Virus record (IMG/VR): IMGVR_UViG_2681813318_000007
Span: 1 to 14,644 of that record
From: a virus
Taxonomy: Duplodnaviria > Heunggongvirae > Uroviricota > Caudoviricetes
DNA length: 14,644 nucleotides
Direction: 5' to 3' (one strand)
Part shown: positions 4,063 to 6,861 of the stretch, piece after piece
How the letters are laid out: every line of letters begins with the position of its first letter
How positions within the stretch are numbered: the first letter of the stretch is position 1
The notes under the pieces: generated by a model
Database searches by the model: none
Seen by the model: only the letters and a program-made list of their open reading frames with translations
What the model was told of the DNA's origin: nothing
Translations under genes and position numbers: made by a program

Positions 4063-6861
4063 ATGTGGGGAAGTGAAAACAAACAAAATCTGGACGTACT
4101 GGATCCTGTGCAGTTGGTGCGTATCGAAGCGGTACACCGGGGGTTCCTTTACCAGCATCTTTACGCTGTAGGCTGCTTACTTTTGGCGCAGAGGGCAGCT
4201 ATGGACTCAGTAACTGTCGAGCTTGATGAGGATATTGAGCTGAAATCCAAACAGGAACGTCTCTACATTCAGGTTAAAACCCGTTCAAAACCTATTATGC
4301 CCAACGATGTGTCGGGGGCTCTGGAGCGATTTGTAAAGCTCAGAAATGAGCATACTTCGGCAAACCGCGAAGGGGTGGCTTCTTTTGTGATTATTGTAAA
4401 CCAGGCGCCTGGACCGCTGCTTCAGAAGATGATTGACGATAAAAAGCTTCCTTCTGATGTTCTTATTGTCTGGCCCCAGTCGACAGCTGGACGTCACCCG
4501 GCACTTCCGCCCGCATGGAGTACTCTGGCTGATGCGGCCACATGGTGTATCGCAGAAGCAGAAAAGCTGAAATTTTCACTATTGTCCCCAGAATCCTTGA
4601 TTTGGAAGTTAGCAGGATTGGTTCAGCTTGCCGCCACCGGAGGCGATATCAATGGACAACATACGTTTTTCACGGAAGAACTTACTGAACTATTTGAACA
4701 GTTGATCGTTCAGCTACAGGACTTTCCTGCACCACCAGCACTGTACCGCCCACAGAACGAAGAACCTTCTCTCACATCTGGTGAGCGGATCCGTATCCTT
4801 TGTGGACTCTCAGGTGCAGGCAAGACAGCTTGGGCCGCACAGGCCGCATTACACTCCACTGCACTTTGTGCTTATTACGACACCGGTGATCTTCCCGGTC
4901 CAGCTCTGGCCAGTACGCTGGTGCGCGAGATGGCTGCTAGATTTACAGCCCGTGACCAAGACGGTTTGCGCAGGATTTTGCTCCCCGGTGCCAGTGGTTT
5001 TGAGGCTCTTAGGAGTTTTGATACCTACCTGAAAGAGCAGGGTACCACCTTGGTGCTGGTTCTGGATAACGCCCATCGTGTACCTGCGGAAAATCTACTG
5101 GATGTTCTGAATGCAACTACACATATTCGTTTTGTGCTGTTGTGCCAGCCTCACGAAAACGTTCGCGAACTGGAGGTCATGACGGGGCTACAGCGCGAGG
5201 GCCTGCAGGGATGGAATCTCGATACGGTAGCTGTCGTTGTAAACGATATCGGAGGATTTGCCACCGCTATGGGATACGAGCAGCTACGGGCTTACACTGG
5301 TGGTCTTCCCCTGTATGTAGAGAGCGCCGCAAAAATCGCCGTTTCTGATTATGAGCGTAATGTCGATGCTCTGTGTGCTGAACTCCAGCAACAAACCCAT
5401 ACTGCGGAAACCGCCCAAGAAATTATTCTGTCACGTGTATTTCAGGGATTTGAATCACTACTTCAGAGCGCGCTGGCATTGTTCAGTCTCTCTGACGTAG
5501 GGCTGAGTCGCGAAGAGATTTCTACGCTCCTAATCAATTCGCTGAACATTTCACCAAGCAGTGCTGCTTCTTTAATTAGGAAAATGCGCGCTACTGGCAC
5601 TATTGAAATTTATGGAAACCAGACCCTGAAGGTACATGATGCTGTCAGGGGGCTAGGACTGCAACATCTGGAACTGATGGATCAGGGTATATCGAACAAA
5701 GCGCTACTAGCGCTGAAAGACCTTTTAGTTGAAAGTCTTCATAATACCCGCAATACAAAACGGTTATCGTTGTTGACTCAACTTTATATTAAGCTCAATG
5801 ATGTCACGACGTTGATCGAACTCTCAGGCCAAGAAATGTTTTATGAGATGGGCGTGACGGTCGACATTCTTGCAAGCTTGGAGCGTGCTGCAACATCGGA
5901 CTTATTGGGACCTGTTCATAAATTCTGGGCATTGGATGGCCTTGTTTTCGTTGAGCTTAAAGACGGAATATCCGACCACATTGCTCAGAGGTTAAACATC
6001 ATGGGAGCTTTACTTGCGGAGCACAAGTTCGGCTATCAAGAAGAGATGGCCTATGCAATGAAACGAATGTTATTTTCGGCAGAAAGCAATGATGCACGAG
6101 AAGTTCAAAAGCTGGCACAGGAAGTCCGCCCCCAACTCCCAGATGAAGAACATAAACGCATCTTTGACTACAACCATGCCATTGCACTCTGGAGATTAAA
6201 AAAACTCAAGGATGCTGAAACATTAAGCTGTAATGTTATACAAGGGTACTATTCTTTATTTGGTATCACACCTGCTGATGTCATAGGAAAAAACGCCGAC
6301 GCATTATGGAAAACTATTAATCATTCCGAAAATATGCAGGAACACTTTAAACATATGGCTGATGCTCTGGAGTTGCTGGCCAGAATTCGTGATGCGCAGG
6401 GAAAACTGTCACCATTACTGCGTATTCATTCGATGAAGTTCTACAATCTGGCCATGGCCCCGGAATCCATGGTCAGGGTGGGCCAAGATCTGGCGGATGA
6501 GTTTGTTGCCATAAAGGATTACGACGGTGCCAAGGAAGTCATGGAGCAACATGTCCTGCCGGTTGTCAATGAGGCAGGTCTAGTACATCGACTGATTCAG
6601 GTTCGAAGCCAATACGCAGTCATATTAGCACTATCGGGTCAGCATAAAGCAGCTGATGTCGAAATGCAGCGCCTTGCTCCCTATATCGAAGGCCTCACAG
6701 GTGTACAGCGTCAAGAAATCCAAAATCAATCAAATTACATCGTACAGCTTGCCCATAAAGCAGCAAAGACTAAATTAACTGAAGTTTTTGGTGCGGTCGG
6801 CCGGAATGAACAATGCCCCTGTGGCTCGGGAATAAAGTACAAAAAATGTCACGGTGCCTGA
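4063..6861 (+). CDS. Large multidomain protein (932 aa): Cap4/DUF4297-like N-terminal nuclease, P-loop STAND/AAA_16-like NTPase, helical C-terminal region, terminal SEC-C zinc motif; candidate antiphage defense protein (Avs-like)
   Basis: Uninterrupted 2.8-kb ORF. N-terminus has [20 protein letters not shown] and LYIQVK (a PD-(D/E)xK-like E/D...QxK pattern). Walker A GLSGAGKT at aa 248-255 (nt 4804..4827) and Walker B [9 protein letters not shown] at aa 330-338 (MalT-like hhhhDxxH). The last 15 residues are [15 protein letters not shown] (SEC-C). AT-rich flanks; lies in the nin region next to a hok locus. Confidence 0.85.
   Translation: [932 protein letters not shown]

Follow-up and report, generated by a model that had tools for sequence, protein, structure and literature searches.

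We analysed a 14,644-nt stretch of a tailed-phage record (IMGVR_UViG_2681813318_000007, positions 1 to 14,644; "the window" hereafter means this whole stretch) and found that its 932-aa gene (4063..6861, + strand) probably encodes a stand-alone, NLR-like pattern-recognition receptor of the Avs type and is a defence "moron" of a Qin/Rac-type lambdoid prophage. The original prediction, made from the sequence alone, had proposed a nuclease effector fused to a STAND NTPase, the logic of Avs/AVAST proteins, and this was supported by the domains, the fold, the conservation and the neighbourhood. Proteins of the Avs class combine an effector, a STAND NTPase and a sensor in one chain, and the same organisation is found in the 932-aa protein, a compact (105 kDa) candidate antiviral STAND that would act as a single protein. 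The domain identities, the conservation of the motifs, the single-gene organisation, the mobility and the association with defence islands were all observed.

The predicted open reading frame (ORF) is present and complete in the window's ORF list, with an ATG start, 932 codons and a stop, and an AAGGA ribosome-binding site (4051-4055) lies 7 nt 5' of its start. All motifs cited in the original prediction were found at the residues given there, including a first N-terminal motif at residues 27-37, VELDEDIEL at 52-60, LYIQVKTR at 67-74, the Walker A motif GLSGAGKT at 248-255, the Walker B motif at 330-338 and the C-terminal SEC-C string at 918-932. The features of the gene are as follows.

4096..4710, + strand, N-terminal Cap4-type PD-(D/E)xK nuclease domain (residues ~12-216)
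4216-4284, + strand, nuclease catalytic core E53, D55, D57 ... Q70-x-K72
4783..5217, + strand, STAND nucleotide-binding domain (residues ~241-385)
4804-4827, + strand, Walker A GLSGAGKT, with K254
5050-5076, + strand, Walker B, D335 followed by N336 instead of D/E
5218..5487, + strand, helical domain of the nucleotide-binding oligomerisation domain (NOD) (residues ~386-475; helices in the model)
5299-5316, + strand, NB-ARC-type GLPL/GxP motif GGLPLY (residues 413-418)
5488..5682, + strand, winged-helix domain with beta-hairpin wing (residues ~476-540)
5626-5649, + strand, MHD-like motif LKVHDAVR (H525, D526)
5683..6789, + strand, C-terminal TPR-like alpha-helical repeat domain, the presumed ligand sensor (residues ~541-909)
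6793..6858, + strand, SecA-type metal-binding (SEC-C) tail (residues 911-932)

Domain architecture and conservation of the nuclease and the nucleotide switch

The centre of the protein carries, in sequence and model, the Walker A motif GxxxxGK[ST], the Walker B motif hhhhD (LVLVLD, residues 330-335), the GxP motif and a winged helix with a conserved His. Pfam AAA_22 matched residues 239-364 with 32.5 bits (cut-off 27), and AAA_16 stayed under its cut-off. In the AlphaFold2 model of the protein (mean pLDDT 79.5), the N-terminal domain is alpha/beta and extends to ~216; a Rossmann-like nucleotide-binding domain comes next, then a helical domain and a winged helix (483-538) that includes a beta-hairpin, and all-helical repeats (541-909) and a short tail make up the remainder. 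Within the winged helix, the secondary structure runs as helices 483-494 and 498-511, strands 514-517 and 521-524, and helix 526-538. Foldseek searches against the PDB placed SeAvs3 (8DGC, E 1e-13) and PH0952, a STAND-TPR protein from an archaeon (6MFV, E 1.5e-13, TM 0.60 on target), at the top, followed by plant NLR resistosomes, and the closest solved NOD in the fold search was that of MalT. The NOD fold resembles those of solved STANDs and a C-terminal repeat sensor is present. The "MalT/STAND-style" call on the centre was thus correct, the fold searches agreeing with it, and the C-terminal ~500 residues, predicted to be helical, contain a repeat region that is all-helical in the model.

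The N-terminus had been described as Cap4/DUF4297-like, and Pfam Cap4_nuclease (DUF4297, PF14130) scored it at 27.1 bits, marginally over the cut-off of 26.2, at residues 25-77; the match spans model positions 7-63 of 200, the first third alone. A precomputed Cap4_nuclease hit exists in about half of the homologues. The predicted PD-(D/E)xK fold is nearest to Cap4-type nucleases, and the family keeps their acidic residues together with the lysine of (E/Q)xK. Beyond the marginal Pfam call, the Cap4 identity of the N-terminus rests firmly on the fold of the predicted model.

Comparisons within the family show that the residues of both catalytic parts are nearly invariant. In an alignment of 22 sequences (49-81% identity), the invariant positions include E53, D55, D57, E59 and Q70-V-K72 of the nuclease, G248/G251/G253-K254-T255 of Walker A, V333-x-D335-N336 of Walker B, G414, P416 and L417 of the GLPL motif, H525 and D526 of the KVHD motif, and the SEC-C cysteines. 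A second, divergent alignment joined the window protein to representatives of 103 clusters that an exhaustive profile search had yielded (104 sequences in total), these being 27-47% identical to the window protein. In this set D57 and Q70 of the nuclease were kept in 104/104 and D55 and K72 in 103/104; for the switch, K254, D335 and P416 were found in 104/104, the Asn after D335 in 94/104, G414 in 96/104, L417 in 97/104, H525 in 99/104 and D526 in 94/104. Because the catalytic residues are near-invariant across 27-47% identity, the alignments provide strong evidence, at the level of sequence, that the nuclease and the nucleotide switch are both functional. The Asp-Asn of Walker B (Asn in 94/104) suggests that hydrolysis would be slow and that the switch would be driven by ATP binding instead.

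In one distant relative, P0264 (893 aa, metagenomic), the NOD, the sensor and the SEC-C tail are kept and Cap4 is replaced by an unrelated ~160-aa N-terminal domain, which looks like an effector swap. A TIR identity of this domain was considered and found weak only (Pfam TIR_2 23 bits, below cut-off; best PDB phmmer match, E 0.5, to Cat1 TIR), the replacement of Cap4 by an unrelated domain being the solid part.

Distribution and neighbourhood of the family

The family comprised 934 hits in a word-indexed search and 389 clusters at 50% identity (E<1e-30) in an exhaustive search, with a remarkably constant protein length. Members were found in gamma-, beta- and alphaproteobacteria, Desulfobacterota, Sporomusa, Streptomyces and Kitasatospora, on 54 plasmids and on two metagenomic "Bacteriophage sp." contigs, and none was found in the genomes of isolated phages. 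They are annotated as "SEC-C metal-binding domain-containing protein" or "ATP-binding protein", and some UniRef members as "ORC1/DEAH AAA+ ATPase".

The family is mobile and associated with defence islands, as seen from the plasmids, the prophage and the defence neighbours. The Vibrio cholerae homologue lies directly 3' of Gabija, and its island also contains PIN_12, AbiH and AAA_13 genes along with an integrase; the Yersinia homologue adjoins Gabija and AAA_13/AAA_21 genes; the Pseudomonas homologue is followed by AbiH; and the homologue on an E. coli IncHI1B plasmid lies within an integrase-bearing element. We further scanned 47 tailed loci from a one-genome-per-species collection, in which the ORFs immediately to the left and right gave 88 unique proteins, and recorded PADLOC matches at E<=1e-8. 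The neighbours matched GajA (2), GajB (2), LmuB (3), AbiH (3), MADS mad2/mad3 and a DRT reverse transcriptase, as well as PD-T7-1, PD-T7-5, Ppl, PDC-S50 and PDC-S52. Defence matches made up about a quarter of the 88 neighbours, an estimate from per-family tallies without a background rate. No neighbour family was conserved across the 47 tailed loci, and the tailed form is therefore a single-gene system.

Comparison with known systems

Among the Avs proteins, the closest in organisation are Avs3 and Avs7. SeAvs3 (AVAST type 3; 8DGC) has 2028 aa, against 932 aa here, and shares no detectable sequence homology; the sensor of the 932-aa protein is far smaller, and the SEC-C tail is absent from Avs3. 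The SeAvs3 and EcAvs4 PDB chains gave no sequence-level match by phmmer or profile, and no Avs/AVAST model (Avs1-5) of PADLOC-DB 2.0 matched the protein even at E<=1. PADLOC, NCBIfam and PHROGs held no full-length model, the only matches being weak ones to the nuclease N-terminus or the SEC-C tail. Avs7 (SeAvs7; Lee et al., Nature 2026, PMC13581612) has the same order of Cap4 nuclease, NTPase and TPR sensor, but, by its description, SeAvs7 protomers are much larger, assemble 1:1:1 with EF-Tu and the major capsid protein into a complex of ~250 kDa, and have their key residues numbered K292, D358 and H545. The SEC-C motif is nowhere mentioned in the main text of that paper, which describes 198 defence-associated STAND clades and Avs7-Avs24. 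Its sensor clustering left out C-terminal regions of <400 aa, and the region past the winged-helix domain of the 932-aa protein has ~392 aa, under this limit. The family is best described as a variant within the Avs-type receptors, and it may, with real uncertainty, belong to one of these STAND clades.

Other systems share single domains with the protein. MalT and PH0952-type STAND NTPases (8BOB, 6MFV) have a related NOD, but MalT is a transcriptional regulator with a LuxR-type DNA-binding domain at its end, whereas the 932-aa protein has an N-terminal nuclease effector and no helix-turn-helix output domain. Cap4 of CBASS is controlled by SAVED and cyclic oligonucleotides, whereas the 932-aa protein has no SAVED and the window no cyclase gene. 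Lamassu LmuA, Hachiman HamA and HerA-DUF4297 are controlled by SMC-like LmuB, the HamB helicase and HerA, respectively, and none of these partner genes was found beside the 932-aa gene, whose flanks are a DUF977 pseudogene and hok/sok. The protein is not CBASS Cap4, Lamassu, Hachiman or HerA-DUF4297. GiPD474 (a Gifsy prophage ATPase, PMC12724215) was also considered and is ParA-like and unrelated.

The architecture itself is unsurprising in 2026, at least 90 structurally distinct defence STAND families having been catalogued, and only the tail is unusual. The original prediction knew of no described family with a terminal SEC-C motif, and our full-text literature search, which covered neither the supplementary tables of Lee et al. 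2026 nor Brenes & Laub 2025, agreed, returning no paper that links SEC-C with Avs, NLR-like proteins, AVAST, DUF4297 or Cap4. Neither SEC-C nor DUF4297 is mentioned by Kaur et al. 2020 (PMC7159879), and the accession of the window protein, WP_000264572, was not found in the full-text search. The only validated antiphage protein described there with a SEC-C motif was Rugutis, from a lactococcal plasmid (PMC11381338); this has 359 aa with the motif at the N-terminus, lacks nuclease and NTPase domains, and bears no other relation to the 932-aa protein.

A SecA-like metal-binding tail

The terminal SEC-C motif was placed well above the Pfam cut-off (SEC-C, PF02810; residues 914-931, E 8e-10, 38.8 bits against 20.4), with C918, C920, C929 and H930 (CxCx8CH) as the predicted metal ligands. 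The last 22 residues are identical to E. coli SecA 878-899 at 16/22 positions (73%), and SecA Ser889 and Tyr893 have their conserved counterparts in Ser922 and Tyr926. When the family profile was run against all PDB sequences, it recovered the SecA zinc-binding peptides 1SX0 and 1TM6, the SecB-bound SecA peptide 1OZB, YchJ-C and full-length SecA C-termini; besides such SecA-type tails, the protein had no sequence relatives in the PDB (phmmer, family profile). The consensus of the tail in 67 divergent tailed representatives is [IV]GRN[DE]xCPCGSGxK[YF]K[KR]C[HC]G, and, judged by this consensus, the family tails keep the entire SecA motif, beyond the four metal ligands. CxCx8CH, the conserved Ser and aromatic residues, the flanking basic residues, GRN and K[YF]K are shared with the SecA metal-binding domain, YecA and YchJ, and the SecA-like domains of the latter two were reported to have 73% identity to the SecA motif, Ser and aromatic residues included (bioRxiv 10.1101/613315). 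The difference is that SEC-C here ends an immune-type STAND nuclease, not a translocase or a chaperone-like protein.

The tail ends about two thirds of the full-length family representatives, and the remaining third either stop ~17 residues past the last conserved helix or have other extensions. On a neighbour-joining tree of the 104 representatives, which is crude at such divergence, its presence or absence changed at least 26 times. Because a third of the family is without it, the tail is accessory, repeatedly and easily lost. Four tail-less members, P0212, P0245, P0153 and P0243, carry other C-terminal extensions, P0212 and P0245 sharing a ~100-aa domain, and long Lys/Arg-rich ends are found in P0153, P0243 and P0245.

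The SecA metal-binding domain binds SecB and also ribosomes near uL23 and the exit tunnel (PMC6620043). Judged from the exact SecA-like sequence, SecB or the ribosome would be the most economical candidate partners of the tail. A role for such a host factor is plausible by analogy with Avs7, in which the abundant translation-associated host factor EF-Tu is built into the active complex (PMC13581612), and with bNACHT25 and DnaJ. We also asked whether the tail tracks SecB-bearing taxa, which was unsupported: the three named Actinobacteria members are tail-less, but so are many from Proteobacteria.

A stronger version of this idea is that the protein is a guard-type sensor, its tail docked constitutively on SecB or the ribosomal exit site, with phage perturbation of the host factor as the trigger or with the factor as a structural co-factor of the active oligomer. 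The full consensus of the SecA metal-binding domain, basic residues and Ser/Tyr included, is kept over deep divergence, the tail matches the peptide crystallised with SecB (1OZB), and the YecA and YchJ tails, at the same 73% identity, are predicted to bind likewise to the SecB and ribosomal partners of SecA; EF-Tu in Avs7 and the sensing of DnaJ perturbation by bNACHT25 are precedents. However, roughly one family member in three has no such tail, the losses are scattered on the tree, tail-less clades exist in Proteobacteria with SecB, and the model shows the tail at low confidence and without a docking site, so that we regard a guard-type sensor as unlikely.

Less likely still is a tail that acts as a nucleic-acid-binding or redox-sensitive zinc knuckle, holding DNA or dimerising on oxidation with no link to Sec. 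The basic, Cys-rich C-terminus of YchJ (Cys149/150) is claimed to bind DNA and to dimerise in dependence on reactive oxygen species (PMC13377102), tailed members have a median net charge of +8 past residue 893, and Lys/Arg-rich tails stand in its place in the tail-less P0153, P0243 and P0245. Such ends as a substitute for SEC-C nevertheless fit few members: a net charge of >=+3 was found in 7/37 tail-less representatives, most simply end, and a basic tail is no general need. In addition, the conservation covers the known SecB-contact positions and not charge alone.

Alternative C-terminal modules

A highly conserved 151-aa ORF, convergent and located just 3' of the family gene, was found at 16/33 tail-less loci and at 0/47 tailed ones. 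Examples among the 16 loci are the following.

L049:8737-9189, - strand, 151-aa ORF
L050:8763-9215, - strand, 151-aa ORF
L059, L064, L066, L067, L070 and L076, 151-aa ORF

The 151-aa protein matches nothing in Pfam, PADLOC or the PDB and is annotated as hypothetical throughout, and the window holds no copy of it. A domain with 42% identity to the 151-aa protein (E 2e-33) is fused behind the SEC-C motif of P0144 (1103 aa; residues 960-1103), and this Rosetta-stone fusion therefore ties the 151-aa protein functionally to the receptor C-terminus; the small protein probably serves the 932-aa STAND family as an accessory or adaptor not described before. Two further ORFs recur upstream of tail-less members: one of ~500 aa with a weak Mrr_cat match (L034:4213-5715, - strand, and six other beta-proteobacterial loci, 7 in total), and one of ~210 aa on the same strand without a match (L055:5342-5968, + strand, and four other loci, 5 in total).

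Taken furthest, the SecA-mimicking tail would make the protein a bacterial NLR wired to SecB or the ribosomal exit tunnel, the host factor being either an obligatory part of the active oligomer, like EF-Tu in Avs7, or a guarded target whose capture by a phage sets off the nuclease. The 151-aa protein and the other extensions would then be interchangeable adaptors that decide what the receptor is connected to. We give this proposal a low probability.

Prophage context and the DUF977..hokD slot

The 932-aa gene lies in a Qin/Rac-type lambdoid prophage of E. coli, in the order integrase (frameshifted), exonuclease, dicB, ydfABC, repressor-like genes, YdaS/YdaT, a 358-aa ORF, a frameshifted DUF977 gene, the 932-aa gene, hokD, DUF968, RusA, Q, tRNAs and lysis genes. 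Since it sits between replication-type genes (YdaS/YdaT, the 358-aa ORF, DUF977) and DUF968-RusA-Q, the earlier label "nin region" is fair. The DUF977 gene (window 3411..3819) is broken into overlapping ORFs at 3411..3686 and 3568..3819 (+ strand), and in an identical genome it is annotated as a frameshifted pseudogene, the integrase there being frameshifted too. As the integrase and DUF977 genes are frameshifted, the prophage is probably defective, and the 932-aa gene is intact nonetheless.

The RefSeq match of the window protein, WP_000264572.1, is labelled "SEC-C metal-binding domain-containing protein". The 3.6 kb around the gene are found at 99-100% identity in 16/5426 complete E. coli genomes, and the flanks in thousands; one E. 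coli copy (H36, NZ_OZ546984.1 361072-365913) is split by the IS3-family element ISEc52.

AT-rich spacers had been described on both sides of the gene. This holds upstream (3820..4062, + strand), with 37% GC against 48% for the window, and not downstream, where 6862-7081 has 46.8% GC and is largely the hok/sok leader. The hok toxin locus that was noted directly 3' of the gene is confirmed as a complete type I toxin-antitoxin locus, hok/sok (6970..7294, + strand), with an Rfam sok match at 6970-7144 (110 bits) and a mok/hokD ORF at 7082..7294. In the Qin prophage of E. coli K-12, relBE lies upstream of hokD. Upstream, TATAAT at 3989-3994 is a perfect -10 hexamer by eye, with a poor -35 (ATGACT, 19-nt spacer), and a consensus promoter scan returned no + strand site in 3820..4062; a promoter of the gene's own within this region is possible.

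The content of the DUF977..hokD slot differs between strains. Two small ORFs occupy it in one case, small DUF7167-type ORFs in another and, in a third, a transporter in a degraded prophage. In E. coli 2013C-4361 the slot holds a pair of ORFs (L010:6295-6873, + strand, and L010:6833-7930, - strand) that adjoins an IS1203 element and matches PADLOC cll (E 2e-28) and PD-Lambda-2_C/beta (E 1e-40), and on account of these matches DUF977..hokD is a cargo slot able to carry known defence genes, a defence hotspot. In E. coli EC14 it holds two adjacent hypothetical genes of 320 and 333 aa (L009:5626-6588 and L009:6604-7605, both + strand), which have no PADLOC match and are a candidate two-gene cargo or defence system.

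Elsewhere in the window, a 142-aa ORF of the late region (11390..11818, + strand) encodes a TolA C-terminal domain (Pfam TolA 82.6 bits), a prophage-borne TolA domain III that is possibly a decoy against Tol-dependent phages or colicins. The Q protein (9175..9996) has a DnaJ-type CXXCXGXG zinc-finger match below cut-off, and a tRNA(CAU) (10140..10215) and a tRNA-Arg(UCU) (10316..10392), both on the + strand, follow downstream of Q.

Proposed mechanism and points against it

We infer the trigger, the oligomeric state, the abortive outcome and the role of the tail on the model of the solved Avs3, Avs4 and Avs7; precedent for a STAND switch triggered by a phage protein is summarised in PMC13581612. 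In the resting state, an ADP-bound NOD would be closed by the winged-helix His525, with the Cap4-type nuclease sequestered. Binding of a protein of the infecting phage by the C-terminal TPR-like domain would open the NOD, and ATP binding (Walker A K254; Walker B D335-N336) would then drive oligomerisation, probably to a tetramer. The Cap4 domains gathered in this way would form an active double-stranded DNA endonuclease (E53/D55/D57, Q70-x-K72), and the degradation of phage and host DNA would result in abortive infection. The SecA-like tail would be an accessory module that tunes the receptor and is not essential to the core switch; it would most likely tether the receptor to an abundant partner of the SecA tail, either SecB or the ribosome near the exit tunnel, or alternatively contact nucleic acid as a basic zinc knuckle.

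Several points weigh against this reading. The Pfam match to Cap4 is marginal and partial, and the defence function is read from architecture and neighbourhood, with no full-length model in PADLOC, NCBIfam or PHROGs. The upstream promoter is unconvincing and the host prophage looks defective, with frameshifts in the integrase and DUF977 genes, so that expression in the lysogen is putative. Some homologues lie among ordinary metabolic genes, as in Serratia ficaria, where the gene is an isolated insertion. As to the tail, it is missing in about a third of the family, scattered on the tree with at least 26 changes, and many SecB-bearing Proteobacteria have members that lack it; the tail is therefore dispensable, and the SecB link is without comparative support.

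The gene might also have no part in immunity and instead encode an ATPase-nuclease that is selfish or serves the phage (for example in prophage replication, in recombination or in excluding processes of the host) or a regulator resembling MalT, or it might be cargo in decay within a cryptic prophage. This reading would agree with the transcription factor MalT as nearest solved NOD, the "ORC1/DEAH AAA+ ATPase" names, the partly degraded prophage and the homologues outside recognisable islands, but it is highly improbable given that the protein has no DNA-binding output domain and its output is the Cap4-type nuclease of CBASS, Lamassu, Hachiman and Avs3/7, that the gene is absent from sequenced phage genomes except two metagenomic contigs and frequent on plasmids, beside defence systems and in many phyla, and that the strong conservation of all catalytic residues speaks against decay.

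Implications for bacterial STAND immunity

If active, the Avs-type receptor proposed here would be a compact one of 105 kDa, spread by lambdoid prophages, plasmids and defence islands through Proteobacteria, Desulfobacterota and beyond, and would enlarge the repertoire of bacterial NLRs by a further family with a further phage trigger. PADLOC 2.0 misses the 932-aa family, which matters for genome annotation. The points of most interest are the SecA-mimicking tail and the interchangeable C-terminal modules. A near-exact copy of the SecB- and ribosome-binding zinc domain of SecA on an immune receptor leads to a concrete hypothesis of host-factor recruitment or guarding, a theme with only two examples so far among bacterial NLRs, namely Avs7 with EF-Tu and bNACHT25 with DnaJ. 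The modular C-terminus, with SEC-C, the separate or fused 151-aa protein and the other extensions, suggests an undescribed adaptor layer in STAND immunity.

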